A program made the position numbers and the translations under genes. The notes beneath the pieces were generated by a model. The model did not search any database. It saw only the letters and a list, made by a program, of their open reading frames with translations, and was not told where the DNA came from. This document shows positions 5,102 to 17,115 of a DNA stretch of 64,000 nt, in pieces. Numbering within the stretch: position 1 is the first letter of the stretch; each line of letters starts with the position of its first letter. This DNA comes from a virus. The stretch lies in the UHGV virus genome UHGV-0033085; one strand, 5' to 3'.

Positions 5102-6034
5102 ATGAAACCAGTATTTTTGGGACAAATTGACATTAGTGAATTGTTTTCAGTTAAAGATGGGTCCCAATATGACTGTGATTGCCTTGAACTTAATGGTCTT
5201 GAATATGAATACAGATTGGCTATTGTGAATGATGGTAAGAAGACATTTTCTGTCGAATGTTTTAAAAATACTTACTTTAAGCATGTGTTGAGAATAAGAC
5301 AGCGTGTGGAGATGTCAATTCGGGAAAACATCAAAAATAAATGTGAGTTTCTTGCGATTAAAAATGAAATAGATGCAATAAACTTTGTTACGTTCACTGA
5401 TAGTGGTCGATTGGCTATGCTGGAGCTATTTCATCTGATCGTTTCTAATAACAGTATAACAGAAGCCTTGATCAGTCTTTCAACTATAGTATCAAAAGAA
5501 AGAGAACACACTGGCGCTTTAATTGTAGAGAAGCTAGGTGGAATACTCGAGAAGATCAAAAATAAAGAGTTGATTATAGAATATGGCAAGGAAAGTAGAA
5601 AAAATAATTTACATTCAGCTTTTCGTTCCCCATATGTTGAGCGTTTAAATGGTTCGGCATCTTTTGTTAATTTAGAGTTTAATAGATTCTTTAGTTCTCT
5701 TTTTACAGAGTATGGAATTGTTATTGTGGAGGTAAATAATGAGAATGATGTGCCAAAAATCATAGTGCATTCGATGCCGGATATCCCTTTCAATGAGATT
5801 GAGAACAAACTGGAGATTTTAGACGATATAAATACAAAAAGCATGGAAGAACTCATAGAGTATCTGGCCGTAGATGCGGTAGCTATGGCTGATAATGATG
5901 TGTTTGGGGTTGGTGCACTGCATGAAGGCTATCTTGACGCCCTTGAACTTTACGGGACTGCTCGCTGGTTTCTGTCAGGATTAGTGGATGATGCGCCTTT
6001 ACTCATCAATACAGATTATTCTTATTCCAGTTGA
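5102..6034 (+). CDS. hypothetical protein (310 aa), AT-rich gene
   Basis: Long ORF with GAGG RBS; base composition clearly more AT-rich than flanks. Confidence 0.55.
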   Translation: MKPVFLGQIDISELFSVKDGSQYDCDCLELNGLEYEYRLAIVNDGKKTFSVECFKNTYFKHVLRIRQRVEMSIRENIKNKCEFLAIKNEIDAINFVTFTDSGRLAMLELFHLIVSNNSITEALISLSTIVSKEREHTGALIVEKLGGILEKIKNKELIIEYGKESRKNNLHSAFRSPYVERLNGSASFVNLEFNRFFSSLFTEYGIVIVEVNNENDVPKIIVHSMPDIPFNEIENKLEILDDINTKSMEELIEYLAVDAVAMADNDVFGVGALHEGYLDALELYGTARWFLSGLVDDAPLLINTDYSYSS

Positions 6035-7850: not shown

Positions 7851-8501
7851 TTACGCTTTAAAAGCATCAGCTAAATAATTGTAGAAATCATTCTTGATAA
7901 AGCGATATTGCTGTGTACCAGCTTTGGCGCTTCCCATTCCTTTGACTTTCTCAACAAGTCCGAGACGTTCGCAAAGATTGATTAGCTGGTTAGCTTGAGT
8001 ATAGCCAGCGTCCAATTTAATTTCACACGCTTTTTTAGCTTCATTCATTAAATCGAAAACAGCGCCATTCGTGAACGTGTCGATCTCGTCGTTAATCATA
8101 TCGATTAAAGCGAATACACGAGATCCAGACATATCAGCGATGGAATAAACGCATTTACCAGATTTAATTGATTTAACCAGATAAACCAGTTTTTCCAGTG
8201 AATAACTATTAGTCATAGCATCACGAAAAAATACTTCTGGCGCTTGTTTGCTTGCTTTAATCGCATAGTAGAAAACAGAGCACAATTTTTCGTCTTCTAC
8301 AGCGTTTACAACGTTGTTGATGAAGTAAGCAAGTTTAGTGGTCGCAGCTTGCATATTTGCTTTGTCTGCTTTAGTGTGCGTACCATTTTTATAATGTTCG
8401 TTATATGTTTGAGTTGCTAGATCTGCTTTTTCGCGCAGCTCGTCGGATACAATAGATGCAGCTTCAATGATGGACTTTTTAGAAATGATAATGTTAGCCA
8501 T
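7851..8501 (-). CDS. hypothetical protein (216 aa)
   Basis: ORF track; AAGGAA RBS. Confidence 0.55.
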   Translation of the reverse strand: MANIIISKKSIIEAASIVSDELREKADLATQTYNEHYKNGTHTKADKANMQAATTKLAYFINNVVNAVEDEKLCSVFYYAIKASKQAPEVFFRDAMTNSYSLEKLVYLVKSIKSGKCVYSIADMSGSRVFALIDMINDEIDTFTNGAVFDLMNEAKKACEIKLDAGYTQANQLINLCERLGLVEKVKGMGSAKAGTQQYRFIKNDFYNYLADAFKA

Positions 8502-8763
8502 GATTTTATTCCTTAGTATAAATATTAAAATTTAACTCAAGAAAGAAAGTGTTTTGCACTCGTTCCTGATGCGTTCAATTATCGACACGCGAAAAAAGAT
8601 TGCAAGTATTTTTTTAAGTTTTTTGCAGGGATGAAAGTCCTAGAAATAAAAGCGAGATCGTCGAAGGTGTTCCCTAAATAAATAATAAATTCCGGCTTTT
8701 GACCTTATATATTTATACGGGGGAGAATTGAATGAGTGTTAAACGAATGGCATGTAAAATAAT

Positions 8764-8797: not shown

Positions 8798-9316
8798 TTA
8801 AAACGGAAGGATTCGTTCAACCCAATCGAAGAAAATAAGTATTTTTCTGCCGTCTTCCAACTTAAGTGTGACTAGACAGGCGTCAACGCCATCTGACGTT
8901 CCCTCAATTTCGCGACCGTCTGCCATGTAGACCCTTATAGATTTGCCGTTTTGGTAAGCCTGACGACATATCTTAAAAAAGTCACGACGTGATGGCTGAT
9001 TAACCATCTGTTCATTGTTTAGCGTTAGTCGACCTGTGAATGAAGTGTCAACCTCTTCTATGCCCGACTCAATTGTGCTAATGCGCTCAAGAGGGAGCCT
9101 TACACGATTTGTGTTGCTAAACGGATCTGGTGTGAGGTTCAGCTTATTTCTTGCGCTCAACAGCCCGTAGACATACATGCAAAACACTTGGCCGTCTTCG
9201 AGAGTGACTCTTACAGGAAATTGAGCACTCCGCCAGAAGAGCAAGGTGCGCTCAGCATGTTCGTAGTCTCGCGGCCAGACTTCAGCCGGTATGCCGTAGG
9301 TGATGTCTTTAACCAT
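8798..9316 (-). CDS. hypothetical protein
   Basis: ORF track. Confidence 0.5.
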   Translation of the reverse strand: MVKDITYGIPAEVWPRDYEHAERTLLFWRSAQFPVRVTLEDGQVFCMYVYGLLSARNKLNLTPDPFSNTNRVRLPLERISTIESGIEEVDTSFTGRLTLNNEQMVNQPSRRDFFKICRQAYQNGKSIRVYMADGREIEGTSDGVDACLVTLKLEDGRKILIFFDWVERILPF

Positions 9317-9418
9317 AGTCTACCTTTTTAAGTCTTTTTTGGTCATTATATACATCTCTATGATGCGTAGACAGACTAACCGTACATTCCACCAAAAATT
9401 GATTATGGAATAAGTTTC

Positions 9419-10219
9419 ATGAAGAATGGGGTGAATAAAAAATACTCATTAGCATTGTTAATAGCGGCTTTACTATTAACAGGTTGTGATTCTGATGAAG
9501 AGCGAGCCATAGATCTAGTTGAAAAGGATATTCGCTCTACACTGCCAGATCCTGATGCTGGTCGGTTCACGAATATGCGAGCTATTCAGTTAGGTGAAAA
9601 TAGCTATTCATATATGGTATGTGGAGAGGTGAATGGTAAAAACGTCTTGAACGCCTATACAGGTGCGACCGCATTCAATGCACACATCTTTGATGTTCGT
9701 GAACGTAACCCGATTGTATTCGTTGCAATGGATAAAAGTACCAACTCGGCAAGAGAACGATTACGTTTTGAACGCCAAAATCTAGCATGTAAAGAAAATG
9801 GTGTGAAACTTTATCTGGAAAACGAATCTAAAATCAGGAAGGAAAAAGAGAAAATAGATGATTTAAAAAAAACTCCATTAGGTCAGGCTGTGTTTGATGC
9901 TGCAAGTGATTCGACATATGTGAGTAGAGAGTTGGGCGAATCGAGAGGTGTTAGTGAAGTGTATGCAAGAGAAAATGATAAATATGCTCTTGTTAGCGTC
10001 ACCAATTATGACACTCCTGACTTTTACAAATTTAGGAAAAAAGACAACGGTGAACTAGAACCTGTTAGGGGACTGTCTTATACCGGCTATCCATTCGCGG
10101 TTACACTGTGCCATTCTGAACAAACAGATTATGACAAATGTATAACAGAAGAAGAAATCAAGTTGCTTCGAGACGAAAAGAATAAGCTCGATGATTTTGT
10201 CGTGCCACCAGAAGAATAA
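9419..10219 (+). CDS. putative lipoprotein
   Basis: N-terminal signal with lipobox LLTGC. Confidence 0.6.
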   Translation: MKNGVNKKYSLALLIAALLLTGCDSDEERAIDLVEKDIRSTLPDPDAGRFTNMRAIQLGENSYSYMVCGEVNGKNVLNAYTGATAFNAHIFDVRERNPIVFVAMDKSTNSARERLRFERQNLACKENGVKLYLENESKIRKEKEKIDDLKKTPLGQAVFDAASDSTYVSRELGESRGVSEVYARENDKYALVSVTNYDTPDFYKFRKKDNGELEPVRGLSYTGYPFAVTLCHSEQTDYDKCITEEEIKLLRDEKNKLDDFVVPPEE

Positions 10220-10280
10220 TATATACAAAATATTTAATTGCTGTTAATATTTAATTGTTCAGACATAGGGAAAGCCCGAA

Positions 10281-10312
10281 CCCTCGACAAATCTTTCTGA
10301 TATTGTCGAGGG
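10281..10312. terminator. bidirectional terminator hairpin between convergent genes
   Basis: CCCTCGACAA-N12-TTGTCGAGGG, perfect 10-bp stem. Confidence 0.55.
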
Positions 10313-10331
10313 TATGCTTCCAAGTGATGAG

Positions 10332-10706
10332 CTACTTATACCCTAATTCTTTACAGCTTTCTTCAAAAACCTCTTTAGGTAGGATATTTAGATCTACAAT
10401 AGTGTTGCTGTTCTTGGTTAACACGTCATTGTAAGGAATTTGTACCCATCTGTAACCTGTATACCCACCATATGAGTTAGTCGCATTTAGTTTGAAACAA
10501 TATGTATTGCTACCTTCAACGTGATCTGGGAATTTGTATTTAGCTGCATCCGGGGCCAGTAATTGTTTTTCTATAATATTTTTAATGTAATCTTGCTGAA
10601 CGGGCGTTAAAGGTTTGGCTACTGTATTTCCTATATAGAATGCCAAGAATGCCATAGAAAAAAATTGAATTTTTTTAGACTTCATCTTTTTAACCGTCTT
10701 TGACAA
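10332..10706 (-). CDS. secreted hypothetical protein
   Basis: Predicted N-terminal signal peptide; AT-rich. Confidence 0.5.
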   Translation of the reverse strand: MSKTVKKMKSKKIQFFSMAFLAFYIGNTVAKPLTPVQQDYIKNIIEKQLLAPDAAKYKFPDHVEGSNTYCFKLNATNSYGGYTGYRWVQIPYNDVLTKNSNTIVDLNILPKEVFEESCKELGYK

Positions 10707-10713
10707 TGAGAGT

Positions 10714-11289
10714 TTATGAGCGTTTGTTGAGCAGATCTACAATCAGCTTTTGAGGTGTATTTTCCTCTTTTGTCTTAGGTAATCCATTCTGAGGTAGCGT
10801 CGATAGTCTGTTCTTATCTCCTCTAGGTAACTCAAGCCTTTTCTTGATCTGCACAATAAGTTCCCATAGACTGTCTTCGTTCTCAACCTTTATAGAGTAG
10901 CCTACGCCACAATATGAATCACTTTTTAAGCGATTGTGAATTTTGAACGTATTGAAGTTTGAGCTTAACTGAATATATCCAGGGGTAATACCATCTATAT
11001 TTTCGATCACAGGGAGTATTTCTTTTATCTGGAAAGGGAAAATGACCAATGAATAATCATCTCGTCTTTCCTCATTGTCTGGTGAAATTAAATAAATGTA
11101 GTAAGGGTTGTTTTTTGAATAAGATTCTCGTAATGCTGAACTCTTTCCGAAGTAGAAACCTTTAGCGTGAATTTTATCTTTCGTTTCTTTCCCCCGTTGT
11201 ATCTGAATGTTACTTTCGCTAAGTGTCCCATTTGATACATATGAAGCTTTATCCAATATCGTGTGAAGTTGTGTATTTGAAAGAGCCAT
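10714..11289 (-). CDS. hypothetical protein
   Basis: ORF track; same leftward operon. Confidence 0.5.
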   Translation of the reverse strand: MALSNTQLHTILDKASYVSNGTLSESNIQIQRGKETKDKIHAKGFYFGKSSALRESYSKNNPYYIYLISPDNEERRDDYSLVIFPFQIKEILPVIENIDGITPGYIQLSSNFNTFKIHNRLKSDSYCGVGYSIKVENEDSLWELIVQIKKRLELPRGDKNRLSTLPQNGLPKTKEENTPQKLIVDLLNKRS

Positions 11290-11433
11290 TAGCTATCCCT
11301 TCGACCAAACTCAGCGATGAAGCCTACAAATATCATTCAGCCAATCAAGAATTTTTTTCAGCCGGAGGTGTGCACTTCAAAAAATGTGATGAATGTCACA
11401 TGCAGGTGCTCTCATACACCTGCATGTAGACTA

Positions 11434-12000
11434 TTAATCATTCAATAATCTATATTTTCTTTTGATTAAATCTTCACCTTTTTTGGTGAACACAAAACCA
11501 AATTGCGATTTTTTGTTCAGCCTAAGGACTCTGTTATCCAACGCATCGGTTGATGGAATCAATGTTTGATCATCTATCCAATTTAGTAGCGTAAGAAAGT
11601 TCAACAGCCTCAACGTTGTTGTGCGAAGCTCTTTCGATATATTTTCAATGCTGGCAATTCGTCTTTCTTTTTTCTCAGGTGGTACAGATAATTGTTCTTG
11701 AGGTTTCGTGGATAGATAATCAATTTCGTTTGCAGCATCGAATGATATGTGTGGCGTTATTTTGCTAAAAAAGCCTTTCGCTGACTCACTTGATAATAAA
11801 CCAGACCTATTCATATCGTTTGTTATTCTGTACAGGAGTGGACTGTGTTTCATTTCAGGATAACGTTGATAAAAGTTAAGCAATTCAAAAGCAGCATTAG
11901 CGCCAACAAGAAAATCAGAAGGATCGCTGACTTTCCAGAAAGAATGATTTTTCTTAGCGCCAGTGGTGTCAACAAATGATAATTCTTTTAACCAACTCAT
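11434..12000 (-). CDS. hypothetical protein
   Basis: ORF track 11434..12033; ATG at 12000 has an AAGGAG RBS. Confidence 0.5.
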   Translation of the reverse strand: MSWLKELSFVDTTGAKKNHSFWKVSDPSDFLVGANAAFELLNFYQRYPEMKHSPLLYRITNDMNRSGLLSSESAKGFFSKITPHISFDAANEIDYLSTKPQEQLSVPPEKKERRIASIENISKELRTTTLRLLNFLTLLNWIDDQTLIPSTDALDNRVLRLNKKSQFGFVFTKKGEDLIKRKYRLLND

Positions 12001-12065
12001 GATGTGCTCCTTTCTAACAAGTGAGCACATCATAGAATTAGTAGATAGGGGGTAAATATGAAATG

Positions 12066-12344
12066 TTACGGCAACCTGCTCAGTATTTCCTCTAAATCTT
12101 TTTTTGTCATATTGGAGTTTTCATAGATGCGCATGATTTTCTCACGCGTCTTAGCGGAAACCCCAACGGCAGATGTGACTTTGTCAAATTCAGCCATAGT
12201 CATCGTCTCCAGAATGGCATTGATAACTTCAGCCTTAGACATCTTGATTTTTTTCTCTTTGAGTTTTATTTGAAATTTTCCAAGTTTTTCATTGGCCTTA
12301 TCAGACAATGCCACTTGGCAATAAGTTGTTTTTTTTTCGCTCAT
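12066..12344 (-). CDS. hypothetical small lysine-rich protein
   Basis: ORF track; immediately downstream of the helicase gene. Confidence 0.45.
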   Translation of the reverse strand: MSEKKTTYCQVALSDKANEKLGKFQIKLKEKKIKMSKAEVINAILETMTMAEFDKVTSAVGVSAKTREKIMRIYENSNMTKKDLEEILSRLP

Positions 12345-12346
12345 AA

Positions 12347-13906
12347 CTAATCTCGTTTCAGAATTCCAAAATCGAATGCGCCATCAATAGGCAATACACC
12401 TTCCGCAAAGCCAGGTGTGGTGTCGATGATGTGTTTTCGCTCATAAGAGTGAGACAACAGGTATTTGTTGCTAGTGTCAATGAAATCAGTGATAAAACAC
12501 ACGTTTGCCTGATTCTTCTTGGCTCGTAAGCCACGACCGACACGCTGCCTCATTTCAACTTCTGCTTTCCCACCACCAGCAAGAATGACCGCACCAACGC
12601 TTGGCACATCAACACCGACATCCAGAATAGTCGAGCCTATTAAAACATCTATTTCTCCAGACGCTAAACTGTTCAGCTTTGCTTGCCTTGTCGCCTGGTT
12701 AGATTCCCCATAGATGAAATCAACTCTAAGACCTGACTCCTTCATCATCTCCATCAGGATTTGCCCGTGGCGTTTAAGACGAACCAGAGTCATGCAGTTG
12801 AGTGAATGTTGCTTATAAAGCAATGCCTCGCGCACTATGGCCTCGTTACGTCCCAAATTATACACGATCCCCAACTGATAAGCCTTTTGGTAGGCGGTGC
12901 TCATACCAACTCTAAAATTGAGGTGTTTGTTGGCAAGTTCGGCCTTGATTCTGGTCTCGTCTGGCTTGTAGGCAACTTTATGATAAAGGAAGTACGGCTT
13001 TGCCAGAATGCCTCGATCAATCAGGTACTTTTCTGTGACTTTAATTTCAATTCGACCGGCCACAGCCATCAGACGCATGTTGGCTTCTGTAGAATCCTTC
13101 ATGAACGGCGTGGCCGTAAGCGCCAGACGATAGTCTGCGTTCACACATAATCTGGCAATGTCATAGAAATTAGAGCCTGAAGACTCATGCGCTTCTTCCA
13201 GAATAAGTAGAGACACACTTGAAAGGAAGCGTTTCACTAGCTCCCGACGTTTGAGGTGGTAGCTCTTTTTATCTGGTGTTGCATCGCGTGGTGGTTCTTC
13301 AAGGAAACTTGCCAGAGTTTGAACTGTAGCGACGTTGATATGTCGTGATACCTGGAACTCACCCGAGCCAATGACTCCAACCTTTTGGTCCTTTAACCAC
13401 GGTTCGCCATTTTCGGCGCGGTAGTCGATGGATCTCTGGAAGTTTTCGGCCATTTGAAACATCAGAACAGAGCGGGTTGTTAAAAATAATGTCATTCGAC
13501 CGATACGTGCAGCTGCTTTGCAGGCAACGTTAGATTTCCCACCACCAGTAGCGATCTGCGCAATCATCATTCCCTCGCGAACTAGTGTTTCCACAGTCTG
13601 ATCCTGATACGCATAATCAGGATTGTATGGGAATGGGTTAACCGCCGGATTTGGCTTTCCAAGCGCCGGGGCTTTGTCTTTGCGGATATGAACACATTTG
13701 ATGCCCGCCTTGTTCAAGTTCGCCGCTACAGGCTTGGCAAATCCAGCAGGGAACGAGTTTTTACTCCAGTTGAACATCGTGCTTGTGCCCTTCCAGTCGC
13801 CAGTCTCGACTTCGTAGCTCAACATTTGCTGCACCAGTTGCTTTACCTTGTCATCTGCGCCAGAAATAAGCGCATTTACTGCGTTAGATACAATCCGAAC
13901 AGTCAT
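12347..13906 (-). CDS. superfamily 2 DEAD/DEAH-box helicase
   Basis: Motif I ATGGGKS, motif II LEEAHE, motif III TATP, motif VI QRVGRGLR. Confidence 0.8.
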   Translation of the reverse strand: MTVRIVSNAVNALISGADDKVKQLVQQMLSYEVETGDWKGTSTMFNWSKNSFPAGFAKPVAANLNKAGIKCVHIRKDKAPALGKPNPAVNPFPYNPDYAYQDQTVETLVREGMMIAQIATGGGKSNVACKAAARIGRMTLFLTTRSVLMFQMAENFQRSIDYRAENGEPWLKDQKVGVIGSGEFQVSRHINVATVQTLASFLEEPPRDATPDKKSYHLKRRELVKRFLSSVSLLILEEAHESSGSNFYDIARLCVNADYRLALTATPFMKDSTEANMRLMAVAGRIEIKVTEKYLIDRGILAKPYFLYHKVAYKPDETRIKAELANKHLNFRVGMSTAYQKAYQLGIVYNLGRNEAIVREALLYKQHSLNCMTLVRLKRHGQILMEMMKESGLRVDFIYGESNQATRQAKLNSLASGEIDVLIGSTILDVGVDVPSVGAVILAGGGKAEVEMRQRVGRGLRAKKNQANVCFITDFIDTSNKYLLSHSYERKHIIDTTPGFAEGVLPIDGAFDFGILKRD

Positions 13907-13949
13907 AAACCTCTTTCCTTAGTGCCTTTTGTATGTTATTTGGCTATTA

Positions 13950-13969
13950 TAATAAGTAAGTGATTACTT
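13950..13969. promoter_or_regulatory. TAAGTA box (AATAAGTAAGTGATTACTTA) in divergent promoter region
   Basis: Palindromic family member between the leftward helicase operon and the rightward ParB-like gene. Confidence 0.4.
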
Positions 13970-13970
13970 A

Positions 13971-14669
13971 GTGGATTGTAGCAATAAAATGGACGTAAAA
14001 ATCACGATTTTGCAGGTTGATGTTGCCAACCTTCGCCCGAATACCTGGAACACAAATTCGGTTGGTGCGCAGAATTTTGAAAAACTGAAAGGTTCTATCG
14101 AAAAATTGGGCTTTTTTAAGCCAATTTTGGCTCGTGAACTTGAAGATGGATTTTTTGAAATCCTCGGCGGCGAACATCGCTGGCGTGCTGCTATTGAGCA
14201 AGGAATTTCAACGGTTCCGGTACTTTCTGTGGGCAAAATTAGCGATGTCGTGGCAAAACAGATGTCACTGGTGGACAACGAGCGATACGGTGAAGACGAC
14301 CAAATCGCATTGCAACGCTTCATTGAAGAAATTCAGTCAGAACTTGACTATCAACTGTCTGAAATCGCCCCGTATGACGACGAAATCTCGATGGTTTTAG
14401 CAAAAGAGGCTGCAATCGACCTTGAAGTACTGGAGGCGTTGTCTCGTGGTAGTGATGAGCCTGTCGATACCGACAAACGAGAGAAAACCGAACGTGTGGG
14501 GGCGGAACATCAGACCATGCGCTTCAAAGTAACTTTCGATGCGTCAGATCGTGTTGCAGAAACCATAAAAAACATCATCAAAGAGCAGGCTATTAACACC
14601 GGTAATGAAATGGAGAACGCTGGTGAGGCTCTGGTGTGGCTGGTCGACTACTACAAGGAGCGTATGTAA
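13971..14669 (+). CDS. ParB/Srx N-terminal domain protein
   Basis: GGEHRWRAA motif; start may be ATG 13989. Confidence 0.65.
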   Translation: MDCSNKMDVKITILQVDVANLRPNTWNTNSVGAQNFEKLKGSIEKLGFFKPILARELEDGFFEILGGEHRWRAAIEQGISTVPVLSVGKISDVVAKQMSLVDNERYGEDDQIALQRFIEEIQSELDYQLSEIAPYDDEISMVLAKEAAIDLEVLEALSRGSDEPVDTDKREKTERVGAEHQTMRFKVTFDASDRVAETIKNIIKEQAINTGNEMENAGEALVWLVDYYKERM

Positions 14670-15337
14670 TGACCAAAAAGTTTGAAATCGTATATCGCGA
14701 CCCGGCAGATCTTATTCCCTATGAGATGAATGCCAAAAAGCATGATGAACAGCAGATCAGAGATCTGGCCGCAGCCATTAAAAAGCGTGGATTTGACCAG
14801 CCAATTACGGTCGATAAGAACGACGTAATTATTACTGGCCACGGCCGCCGTGAGGCTGCAATTTTTGCTGGACTTGAGCGCGTACCGGTTATTGTTCGCG
14901 ATGATCTCAGTGATGACGAGGTTCGTGCGAAGCGCCTTGAAGATAACCGACTTGCCAGCATTGATTACGATGCAATTAAGCTACAGAAAGAGCTTGAGTC
15001 GCTTGTTCTGGACGATATCGAGGTTTTCGGCTTTGAAGAGCGTGAGTTGAATGTTCTCGTTGGCAGTATGACAGAAGAAATGGACACCGACTCGCTAGTT
15101 ATCGATCTTGGCGAAGAAACTAAACGACAGAAGGATGAACACACCGAGATCAGTCGTGAAGTTGCAGCGGAAGAAGTACGTGTTGTCGACGTATTGGGCT
15201 TTAAAACGCTCCCTGCTGGCTCTGCCATTGTTGTTGGTGATTTGCTTGCCCACATGGAAGAAATGACAGGAGAAAGCGGGGTAGACGCATTTGTGGCATA
15301 TGCGGAGAAGATCTCTTCCGGGGAGATGGCTGCATGA
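14669..15337 (+). CDS. ParB/Srx N-terminal domain protein (second copy)
   Basis: GHGRREAA motif; ATG overlaps upstream stop. Confidence 0.65.
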   Translation: MTKKFEIVYRDPADLIPYEMNAKKHDEQQIRDLAAAIKKRGFDQPITVDKNDVIITGHGRREAAIFAGLERVPVIVRDDLSDDEVRAKRLEDNRLASIDYDAIKLQKELESLVLDDIEVFGFEERELNVLVGSMTEEMDTDSLVIDLGEETKRQKDEHTEISREVAAEEVRVVDVLGFKTLPAGSAIVVGDLLAHMEEMTGESGVDAFVAYAEKISSGEMAA

Positions 15338-15972
15338 GCAAATACATCATCAACGTATCGTTTCAGACACGCGTAAATAAAACCACGCGCACGTTGGAAA
15401 TCGCTGAGTCGTTCGGGCTTGGCCTGGACGAAAAAGAGTGGACGCTTTACGACAATCTGGAGCTGGAAGTGAAGCAGGGCGATGTGGTGTACATCACCGG
15501 CCAATCCGGTTCCGGCAAATCCGTTGTGCTGCGCGAGTTGCAACGACAGATGAAGGATGAAGGGCTGTCTGTAGCCTCCATCGATGATTTTACCTTCGAT
15601 AATGAGGTTAACGTCATCGATCAGTTGGGCAAAACGACCAGTGATGCGCTTGGGTTGTTATCTATGGCTGGTCTGAACGATGCATATCTGTTTGTTCGCA
15701 AGCCTTCTGAAATGTCAGACGGTCAGAAATATCGTCTCAAGATTGCCAAACTGATTGAGTCAGGCGCTAAAGTGTGGGCTGCTGACGAGTTCGGTGCTGT
15801 TCTAGACCGTGTAACCGCTCAGGTTGTGGCATCTAACCTCCAGCGTGCCGCTCGAAAGGTTGGTGCGACGGTAATGGTGGCGACGACTCACGAAGACCTG
15901 AAGAACGCGCTGCGCCCGGATATGCAGATCACCAAGCACTACAAAGAACGCGTGAAGGTGGAATATGCCTGA
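15334..15972 (+). CDS. ABC-type ATPase domain protein
   Basis: Walker A GQSGSGKS, signature-like MSDGQKYR, Walker B VWAADEFG, H-loop ATTHE. Confidence 0.65.
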   Translation: MSKYIINVSFQTRVNKTTRTLEIAESFGLGLDEKEWTLYDNLELEVKQGDVVYITGQSGSGKSVVLRELQRQMKDEGLSVASIDDFTFDNEVNVIDQLGKTTSDALGLLSMAGLNDAYLFVRKPSEMSDGQKYRLKIAKLIESGAKVWAADEFGAVLDRVTAQVVASNLQRAARKVGATVMVATTHEDLKNALRPDMQITKHYKERVKVEYA

Positions 15973-16219
15973 TTTGAAAATTGTAGAGCTGAAGCCATCG
16001 AAAGAGGATGACAATAACAATGTTGAGGTCATCCGCTTGCTGGAAGAAGCACTCCAGTACGCCAGAGAAGGCAAATCCCAGAGTCTGGCGCTGCTGATGA
16101 TCAATAGCGACGGCAGTGTTATGGATTGCTGGCATAACGGTGGGCGTCCATACGTCATGGTTGGGGCGATGGAATCGCTTCGCCTGGACTTCATCAATGC
16201 CAATATAGAGCGCAGGTGA
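15965..16219 (+). CDS. hypothetical protein
   Basis: ORF track; translationally coupled. Confidence 0.45.
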   Translation: MPDLKIVELKPSKEDDNNNVEVIRLLEEALQYAREGKSQSLALLMINSDGSVMDCWHNGGRPYVMVGAMESLRLDFINANIERR

Positions 16220-17115
16220 TCGACATGACAGACATCATCATCAAACGCTACCGCCCGGAAGAGTTCCCGCGTCATCTGGACTTTCTGGAGCGTATGACCG
16301 TTGCCAAAGGTACGGTTGAAGACTGGCACGCTCTTAAGTCTCTTCACTACAAAACAGACGGCAAACCTTTCGCACCAACTTATTATCGCTGCGAACTGGA
16401 TGGCCGTCTGGTGGGCGTCGTGGTAATGGCTTACCCGAAACTTTTGCTGGCACCTCGCCATCGCATGTTTCCTAAGTTGAAACCAACCACCAACACCACC
16501 GTGGCGAACCAGTACTGGGGGCGATACGTGAATAACAACTTCGCGGTGATCAGTCGATCAGTTGTGGATACCCAGTACCGTGGCGTAGGCGTCTCTTATC
16601 GAATGATTAACCTGGTTAGCAGGATGCATGACCGGCCAATCATTGAGATCCAGTCCTCGATGAGCAAATACAACCCCTTCGCCATGAAAGCAGGGTTCAG
16701 GTTCATCCGCCCTGAGCGACCGAAGAGCTATGAAAGTGCACTGCGTGTGTTCCAGCGCCATTTCCGCTCCGACCCGGGTGATAACGAAGCGATCGTCAAA
16801 GAGTTGTTCGCTATGAGCGATGCTCGTCGTCGCCGTGCACTGCGTGATCTGGTGGCGGACTACCACAAGAACAGTTCTCTGGCAAAAGCTGGGCGGAATC
16901 GTGGCACGACGATTCAGGACATTGCCGACAGTCTGGTGGACGAGGCCAGCATTGTGAAGCTGCTCAAGGACATTCACAACCTGAGCTTTACGTCTCCGTT
17001 GTATGGCGTGTACCGAAACCCTGACTTTGGTCGTCGACTGCCTGACACGCTGCCACTGCTGGCATTCGACAAACAACCTTTGGATAAACCGTTAGAAATT
17101 GCTTTACCGGCATAA
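16216..17115 (+). CDS. GNAT-like acetyltransferase-fold protein (tentative)
   Basis: QYRGVGVS and later KAGF motifs resemble GNAT motifs A and B. Confidence 0.45.
   Translation: MIDMTDIIIKRYRPEEFPRHLDFLERMTVAKGTVEDWHALKSLHYKTDGKPFAPTYYRCELDGRLVGVVVMAYPKLLLAPRHRMFPKLKPTTNTTVANQYWGRYVNNNFAVISRSVVDTQYRGVGVSYRMINLVSRMHDRPIIEIQSSMSKYNPFAMKAGFRFIRPERPKSYESALRVFQRHFRSDPGDNEAIVKELFAMSDARRRRALRDLVADYHKNSSLAKAGRNRGTTIQDIADSLVDEASIVKLLKDIHNLSFTSPLYGVYRNPDFGRRLPDTLPLLAFDKQPLDKPLEIALPA

Follow-up and report, generated by a model that had tools for sequence, protein, structure and literature searches.

Exchangeable AT-rich cargo beside a probable helicase-p92 backbone in an SSU5-type phage-plasmid

Organization and base composition of the locus

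The virus genome UHGV-0033085, analysed here as a single stretch of 64,000 nucleotides (the window), carries on its minus strand five co-oriented open reading frames (ORFs), at positions 12347-13906, 12066-12344, 11434-12033, 10714-11289 and 10332-10706, the first of which encodes a 519-residue helicase, just as the initial annotation had described them. That annotation saw in these genes one acquired island of low guanine-cytosine (GC) content, in which the helicase and its small partners could form a defence or counter-defence system or, equally, the helicase could serve recombination or repair. The analysis presented here makes it quite probable that the locus is a backbone, formed by the helicase and the small protein p92, joined to exchangeable cargo rich in adenine and thymine (AT-rich), and not a helicase-based defence system. 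Over 4.5 kb it shares 98.3% identity with the region of Escherichia phage PhiR41_1; it is about 97% identical to those of phage Cyrano and of Escherichia coli phage-plasmids, and with Salmonella phage SSU5 it shares 79% identity over the helicase and ParB genes only. These identities mark the window, by its sequence, as an SSU5-type phage-plasmid, a kind of element that is common in clinical E. coli, Shigella, Salmonella Typhi, Klebsiella and Yersinia pestis (pMT).

The helicase gene (12347-13906) is directly followed by the gene for p92 (12066-12344; phrog_1466), a small basic protein of 92 amino acids with an isoelectric point (pI) of 9.5. The third ORF encodes 199 amino acids in its longest reading; its true start is most likely the ATG at 12000, because an AAAGGAG ribosome-binding site (RBS) precedes this codon and RefSeq annotates the homologues in the same way, and the product is then p188, of 188 amino acids (11434-12000; phrog_13473). 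Behind it, at 11398-11427 on the minus strand, lies a hairpin with a perfect 11-bp stem, an 8-nt loop, a folding free energy (dG) of -25.4 kcal/mol (z = -4.3) and a T6 run 13 nt downstream. Next come the genes for p191 (10714-11289; 191 amino acids, phrog_29155) and p124 (10332-10706), which has 124 amino acids, or 117 from the second ATG, the start annotated in PhiR41_1. A second hairpin, at 10280-10313, separates p124 from the convergent plus-strand gene of lp266, a lipoprotein (9419-10219); it has a perfect 11-bp stem, a 12-nt loop and a dG of -26.4 kcal/mol (z = -5.9). The bidirectional terminator that had been placed here, at 10281-10312, is indeed a very stable hairpin, but a U-tract is absent on both strands and the terminator scan made no call. 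Further on, the minus strand carries an FljA-like gene (8798-9316) and then p216 (7851-8501; phrog_1513), a backbone gene conserved in related loci.

In view of the strong hairpin after p188, transcription of all five genes as a single simple unit is improbable. The hairpins that follow p188 and p124 are without canonical U-tracts, and a promoter scan returned 19 promoter-like sites against 16.3 +/- 4.2 in shuffled sequences, that is, no enrichment.

Base composition was compared with that of the 59 window ORFs of at least 100 amino acids, whose GC content has a mean of 0.461 and a standard deviation of 0.046, the corresponding values for GC at third codon positions (GC3) being 0.466 and 0.077. 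The low GC ascribed to the whole block holds for p188 (GC 0.356, z = -2.29, GC3 0.317), p191 (0.363, -2.15, 0.344) and p124, which has the lowest GC of the window (0.341, -2.62, 0.336), but not for the helicase (0.472, +0.24, 0.487). It extends to lp266 on the plus strand (0.390, -1.57, 0.307), and these four genes are found among the six lowest-GC ORFs of the window, with GC3 values of 0.31-0.34 (z of -1.6 to -2.1). The GC of the FljA-like gene, 0.468, is at backbone level. The low GC of p92 (0.376, z = -1.86), with its normal third positions (GC3 0.441), reflects a lysine-rich composition and not a foreign origin. The quantitative check of GC across the element thus gives a deviation confined to about 9.3-12.0 kb, an AT-rich block with the helicase outside and lp266 inside.

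Census of related loci

In a plasmid collection, 472 records from Escherichia, Enterobacter, Yersinia (pMT), Salmonella, Citrobacter and Cronobacter match part of the segment 8700-14000, and only 36 of them cover at least 80% of this query, a first indication that the query combines conserved with variable stretches. A synteny census was built from 80 IMG/VR loci, with the helicase as anchor, and 13 loci from annotated phages, plasmids and assemblies; the locus counts below are given out of 91 related loci. Prevalence in E. coli was counted among 5,426 complete genomes. The helicase occurs in 233 of them, plasmid-borne in every case, and p188 in 87 (87 of the 233 helicase-bearing genomes), while the module formed by p191 and p124 is found in 8.

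The helicase as a backbone enzyme

The assignment of the first gene to the DEAD/DEAH-box helicases is borne out by Pfam domains above their cut-offs, namely ResIII (54 bits, cut-off 22.5), DEAD (53.7, cut-off 26) and Helicase_C (49.8, cut-off 23.5), and by intact motifs of the superfamily 2 (SF2) type: I (GGGKS, residue 121), II (EEAH, 237), III (TAT, 264) and VI (QRVGRGLR, 454). The N-terminal extension, first put at about 130 residues, measures some 95-100, as the Pfam match begins at residue 99. Among the PHROGs the protein matches phrog_16, 'DNA helicase' (1.5e-93), and its best PDB matches are XPBII (1.9e-12), Rad25/XPB (1.3e-8) and T4 UvsW (3.1e-8). The alignment with T4 UvsW (2oca_A) covers residues 231-491 only, and XPBII and Rad25 score equally well or better. 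The XPB/Rad25 families proper are missed at their cut-offs, with 50.9 versus 610 bits for NF045503 (XPB), 26.7 versus 328.7 bits for TIGR00603 (rad25) and 22.7 versus 27 bits for PF16203 (ERCC3_RAD25_C). A tblastn search finds relatives in 906 phage records, most of them genes annotated as 'DNA helicase' in the replication modules of large phages of Staphylococcus, Bacillus, Listeria and Enterococcus, and the UvsW-annotated genes of Klebsiella and Salmonella phages are also among them. With XPBII, Rad25/XPB and UvsW as relatives and hundreds of phage replication-module helicases as matches, it is the UvsW-like recombination or repair reading of the initial annotation that fits this gene.

The helicase has 519-522 amino acids in all related loci and keeps the same position in them, that of Y. 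pestis pMT included. A full-length homologue with 40% identity and the same synteny is present in Rhizobium phage RHph_X66, where the helicase, with a small ORF behind it, diverges from a group made up of terminase, an ABC-ATPase and two ParB genes. The location of the helicase beside the ParB/packaging block is thus ancient. Judged by homology, the protein is an enzyme of DNA metabolism of the XPB/UvsW/D10 kind that belongs to the backbone of SSU5-type phage-plasmids, and its similarity to T4 UvsW and T5 D10 indicates that it most likely acts as a branch- or fork-remodelling enzyme.

UvsW/D10-type phage helicases have been reported to trigger type III-A3 retron defence, and an anti-retron Rad system has been reported in 16-22% of Escherichia/Shigella SSU5-group elements (PMC12746101; bioRxiv 10.1101/2025.09.12.675607). 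To place the present helicase in the role of a retron trigger is speculation.

p92 and the divergent control region

A gene of the p92 family lies directly after the helicase in 89 of the 91 loci, with a junction of 2-5 nt. In the window its ATG comes 2 nt past the helicase stop codon, a spacing that makes translational coupling of the two genes likely. The protein is fast-evolving, its identity dropping from 100% to 36% while that of the helicase drops from 100% to 82%, and in loci with 71% helicase identity it was recognised only through clustering. A profile search gathered 49 clusters only, all from Enterobacterales phage-plasmid contigs (SSU5 supergroup), and the most distant members retain the same synteny. 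Nothing significant was found for p92 in Pfam, NCBIfam, PADLOC or the PDB. A 61-amino-acid ORF of RHph_X66 was considered as a homologue and rejected (hhalign probability 1.4%). From its invariant adjacency, p92 is probably a lineage-specific accessory or regulatory partner of the helicase.

The leftward genes are divergent from two ParB_N genes, which confirms the divergent transcription from ParB-like genes described at the outset, and the intergenic control region that separates the helicase from the first of these genes spans 13907-13988. It contains the palindrome TAAGTAATCACTTACTTA at 13953-13970, directly upstream of a TATAAT box at 13946-13951 (minus strand). The arms of the palindrome, TAAGTA/TACTTA, recur in every lineage, even where helicase identity is as low as 71%, and irrespective of the type of p92; the spacer between them varies from 2 to 6 nt, and TAAGTAATCACTTACTTA is likely to be an operator for a conserved regulator. 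A second palindrome, ATACAATCCATTGTAT, is added in SSU5-type lineages.

It could be argued that p92 is itself a regulator, of the ribbon-helix-helix (RHH) type, which controls transcription of the leftward operon or of the divergent ParB/packaging operon and is not a cofactor of the helicase. In our own reading of the alignment, its pattern of a short N-terminal strand (CQVxL), a helix, a loop (IKxSK) and a second helix fits an RHH protein, as does the basic pI, and the conserved palindrome overlaps the helicase promoter. However, no RHH family appears among the Pfam matches of 12 diverse members, no RHH structure was recovered from the PDB by sequence or by profile, and covariation is not seen, since the palindrome arms do not change with the putative DNA-facing strand residues of p92. 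Such a role is possible, if rather unlikely, and p92 is preferably regarded as a partner of the helicase.

The divergent operon itself (13989-17115, plus strand) encodes two ParB_N proteins, an ABC-type ATPase and ORFs of 84 and 299 amino acids, followed by terminase in relatives, and is conserved as far as Rhizobium phage RHph_X66. In PADLOC its ParB-like proteins match a type II methyltransferase model, and the ATPase matches MADS mad3 and mad8 through its P-loop region.

A cargo hotspot between p92 and the FljA-like gene

The distance between p92 and the FljA-like gene ranges from 107 bp, in nine loci without cargo, to 2,935 bp, and the gap, a recombination hotspot, is filled by six recurrent cargo families (F1-F6) in about 20 architectures. 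These are a lipoprotein of phrog_890 (F1, 41 of the 91 loci), the p188 family (F2, 31 loci), the p191 family (F3, 27), a secreted protein of about 196 amino acids of phrog_18942 (F4, 18), lp266 (F5, 13), which is on the opposite strand in every locus that carries it, and the p124 family (F6, 9). In SSU5 and Y. pestis pMT, F1 stands alone in the hotspot, and the architecture of the window is common only to PhiR41_1 among the sampled loci.

Pairwise alignments to 14 representative relatives place breakpoints at about 12062-12096, at the 3' end of p92; at about 11967-11982, just upstream of p188; at 11319-11321, between the p188 hairpin and the start of p191, common to five relatives; at about 10320, between p124 and the hairpin at 10280-10313; and at about 9307-9326, at the start of the FljA-like gene. 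From these recurrent breakpoints the order of the locus is therefore read as backbone, module A (p188, ending in its hairpin), module B (p191 and p124), module C (the inverted lp266 with the hairpin at the B/C boundary) and backbone again. The claim of an acquired accessory island is retained in part: the cargo DNA is deviant in composition and is exchanged, but the helicase falls outside it, with the GC of the backbone and synteny in 91 of 91 loci, in the 472 plasmid records and in the Rhizobium phage. Ordinary replication or recombination functions in conserved syntenic positions, which the initial annotation had named as the case against an island, were found for the helicase and p92, that is, for two of the five genes, and not for p188, p191 and p124.

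Traces of cargo decay are seen in relatives: lp266 is split into two ORFs in locus L020, the F1 lipoprotein has an internal deletion in L047 (100 amino acids), and L007, which is without p188, retains a remnant of the p188 3' end together with the hairpin (window 11320-11446, 80% identity).

The distal anchor of the hotspot, the FljA-like gene, matches PF03614 (Flag1_repress, the repressor of phase-1 flagellin family; 6.7e-69) and is present in nearly all loci. It is retained in Y. pestis pMT, and Klebsiella is a source of p92-family relatives in the same block. Both of these hosts are non-motile. The persistence of the gene in non-motile hosts suggests that it does something else than control flagellar phase; it could, for instance, regulate genes of the element itself at the post-transcriptional level.

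Limited literature searches returned no description of the helicase, p92, the hotspot or the orphan cargo families, and on this basis the p92-FljA hotspot has, to our knowledge, not been described before. Elsewhere in the window, an AT-rich ORF at 5102-6034 (plus strand; 310 amino acids, GC 0.358, acidic, pI 4.8) gave no match in Pfam, PHROG or PADLOC and may be a second accessory cargo site of the element.

Cargo proteins

Both p188 and p191 are cytoplasmic and basic (pI 9.3 and 9.0), and their families are confined to Enterobacterales phage-plasmids. Among 5.8 billion proteins they form 10 and 7 clusters, respectively, and an exhaustive HMMER scan of 1.84 billion representatives gave 5 matches for p191. 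Searches of Pfam, NCBIfam, PADLOC and the PDB yielded nothing significant for p188, p191 or p124, and the structure models of the cargo are poor, that of p188 being unusable (predicted local distance difference test score, pLDDT, 38.8). Homologues of p191 with 45-57% identity keep their full length and 57 invariant columns, and relatives of p188 with 24-44% identity retain two segments of conserved sequence, which shows that constraint acts on these genes. A KilAC/ANT DNA-binding domain in the C-terminus of p188 was rejected, since it was matched in one of 11 family members (E = 0.04), and an acidic DNA-mimic with anti-restriction activity was discarded as an idea for the cargo because p188 and p191 are basic.

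In one relative (L025, IMGVR_UViG_3300015177_000008) the p191 slot holds a protein of 377 amino acids, whose ORF lies at hotspot coordinates 1057-2190, numbered from the first base beyond the helicase match (locus position 8558). Its C-terminus carries an HNH domain (PF01844, 27.7 bits, cut-off 21.4), with weak PADLOC matches to HNH and type IV restriction (mREase_IV) models, and its N-terminus matches a diverse F3 profile (hhalign probability 69.5%, E = 4e-5) and, by BLASTP, one member of the family (3.5e-5). The protein is probably a p191-like N-terminal domain fused to an HNH nuclease, and such a fusion hints at a nucleic-acid-directed role for the p191 domain. The genes of the basic, cytoplasmic p188 and p191 may be read, as we infer, as nucleic-acid-directed conflict genes, acting in defence or anti-defence.

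The other cargo proteins of the window appear to be exported. The signal peptide attributed to p124, the last protein of the leftward series, agrees with a Lys-rich N-terminus, a hydrophobic core and the motif TVA|KP, and lp266 has a lipobox, LLTGC, at residues 19-23; both are called from sequence pattern only. In the PHROGs, p124 matches phrog_2320 (4e-24), and lp266 matches phrog_20234 and, over its N-terminal part, phrog_2320 (8.6e-20). Direct homology between the two was rejected, as BLASTP was not significant and they are linked only through their N-terminal parts and the common phrog_2320; they may be distant paralogues with a common exported domain. Every cargo-bearing architecture has at least one exported protein or lipoprotein (F1, F4, F5, F6), usually the last before the FljA-like gene, and these members belong to at least three unrelated PHROGs (phrog_890, phrog_18942 and phrog_2320). 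This presence in every cargo-bearing variant leads us to infer, by analogy, that the exported cargo would be envelope proteins of the lysogenic-conversion or superinfection-exclusion type.

Proposed model and alternative explanations

The model proposed here is that the backbone consists of the divergent promoter region, the SF2 helicase and p92, and that ancestrally it would have run on into the FljA-like gene and p216. In the course of phage replication, recombination or DNA maturation, the helicase would remodel DNA branches (forks, D-loops, Holliday junctions or R-loops), with p92 as an accessory or regulatory partner analogous to uvsW.1. Self-contained AT-rich cassettes would be exchanged at fixed intergenic breakpoints in the space between p92 and the FljA-like gene, and the window would hold three of them: p188 with its hairpin (A), p191 with the secreted p124 (B) and the inverted lp266 (C). 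This cargo would be independent of the helicase.

Several points weigh against this model. The roles of all genes are read here from sequence, and so is the fit of the helicase to UvsW or to XPB, in alignments that all lie beyond residue 98. The status of p92 as a partner derives from its invariant adjacency, and no similarity could be detected between p92 and UvsW.1, RHH proteins or the small ORF of the Rhizobium phage. The link between p191 and the HNH protein is moderate, as a narrow p191 profile does not match that protein significantly, and the function of the exported proteins is argued by analogy. Finally, p188 and p191 are found together in about 22 loci, so that a system of two genes is conceivable.

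Such a system would be a self-contained, undescribed conflict cassette of p188 and p191, with or without p124, which is carried in the hotspot independently of the helicase and serves in defence against phages or plasmids or in anti-defence. The p191 domain would be its module for sensing nucleic acid or a trigger, coupled in some relatives directly to an HNH nuclease. The loci in which F2 and F3 are adjacent have helicases 71-100% identical and include a Salmonella element, both proteins are basic, and the cassette is AT-rich, of narrow range and of fast turnover. The HNH-bearing variant, with its restriction-type PADLOC matches on that domain, points in the same direction, as does a report that an SSU5-like plasmid lowers phage and plasmid uptake in Klebsiella (PMC8969562). 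On the other hand, 9 loci have F2 but lack F3 and 5 have F3 but lack F2, a hairpin and a recurrent breakpoint part the two genes, and neither protein could be assigned a catalytic motif, a family or a fold. A joint cassette is thus unlikely, and slightly more doubtful still is the fuller proposal that the pair and the HNH fusion represent an undescribed nucleic-acid-targeting conflict system, exchanged as cassettes beside a slot that always contains an exported protein, one that is likely to alter the cell surface. If it were true, the system would serve in defence against competing phages or plasmids, or in anti-defence.

The initial annotation raised the possibility that the helicase and the four small genes downstream make up one acquired system of defence or counter-defence. 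In such a system the helicase would be the motor or sensor, and the small proteins would be the effectors. The five ORFs are co-oriented and tightly spaced, and the helicase gives partial matches to PbeA (6e-23), type IV mREase and DpdF in PADLOC and to TIGR04095 (dnd_restrict_1). These matches, however, concern the generic SF2 core only: TIGR04095 reaches 59.9 versus 600 bits, the best of them, PbeA, scores 79 bits over the C-terminal two-thirds of a 672-position model, and the others cover the Helicase_C region only. The helicase thus has no full-length match to the helicase models of the Dnd/Pbe, type IV restriction, Dpd, Druantia, DISARM or BREX systems. No defence-catalogue model fits any of the small proteins, since p92, p188, p191, p124, lp266 and p216 have no significant PADLOC match (the single one is SspC, E = 0.007, 12 bits), and for the neighbouring genes the matches are of the generic ParB-like and P-loop kinds only. 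A published study that screened 1,227 SSU5-group contigs with DefenseFinder reports no system as ubiquitous. It is on distribution that the defence reading fails, because the helicase is fixed and its supposed partners are interchangeable cassettes. Most relatives, among them SSU5, Y. pestis pMT and the nine loci without cargo, have the helicase without p188, p191 and p124, and module B is missing from 225 of the 233 helicase-bearing E. coli genomes. The helicase has the GC of the backbone, and p188, p191 and p124 belong to separate cassettes, with their own breakpoints and hairpins, that come and go independently. A single helicase-centred system is, in consequence, very improbable.

Equally improbable is the view that the AT-rich ORFs are filler DNA, decaying or without function, in an intergenic region that tolerates it, as the degraded copies in three relatives might suggest, given that p191 and p188 conserve the features described above, that RBSs are present and that the same families recur in Escherichia, Salmonella, Klebsiella, Cronobacter and Enterobacter elements.

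Significance and comparison with known systems

To distinguish the fixed backbone of helicase and p92 from the p92-FljA exchange site helps the annotation and typing of these elements, and recognition of the helicase as backbone avoids counting it as a defence gene. The hotspot, in turn, offers a short and bounded screening list, made of the p188 and p191 types, the HNH fusion included, and three exported families, which could be screened for superinfection exclusion, surface conversion and new defence or anti-defence activities. The finding does not open a long-standing question.

The helicase resembles T4 UvsW and T5 D10 in having an SF2 core of about 500 amino acids with an N-terminal accessory region, and in having relatives annotated in the replication modules of many large phages. 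D10 is a biochemically characterised branch-migration helicase whose closest solved relatives are archaeal XPB, Rad25 and UvsW, the same trio as for this helicase (PMC5180179). It differs from UvsW in its setting, as UvsW sits in a T4-type replication cluster, whereas the present gene is found beside ParB-like and packaging genes in a temperate phage-plasmid. XPB proteins (Rad25, XPBII) provide the best PDB matches, together with partial matches to Pfam ERCC3_RAD25_C and NCBIfam XPB, but the scores are far under the family cut-offs, no nuclease partner of the Bax1 type is present and the setting here is that of a phage.

The uvsW gene of T4-like phages invariably has a small conserved ORF, uvsW.1, behind it (PMC1524935). 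The likeness to the helicase-p92 pair, in which the helicase gene also immediately precedes a small conserved ORF, is one of architecture only, and UvsW.1 is not among the PDB profile matches of p92.

The exported cargo may be set beside T5 Llp and the Cor proteins of phi80 and N15, phage proteins of superinfection exclusion or receptor masking. Compared by description only, the two groups have in common that they are small exported proteins or lipoproteins, in an accessory position of a temperate element, with several unrelated families per slot.

As a whole, the hotspot is closest to the morons of temperate phages, of which bor and lom of lambda are examples. Two hallmarks of a moron or cassette are found here, namely variable presence at a fixed site between conserved genes and a deviant composition. 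As in the variable 'plasmid-like' regions of phage-plasmids (PMC7969092), cassettes of lower GC lie between backbone genes, are present or absent among near-identical relatives, are flanked by hairpins and are enriched in exported proteins and lipoproteins. The difference is that the cargo families are uncharacterised here and that the cassette promoters are candidates only, with no enrichment over shuffled sequences. A backbone with a moron hotspot is, in itself, a known and conventional arrangement.

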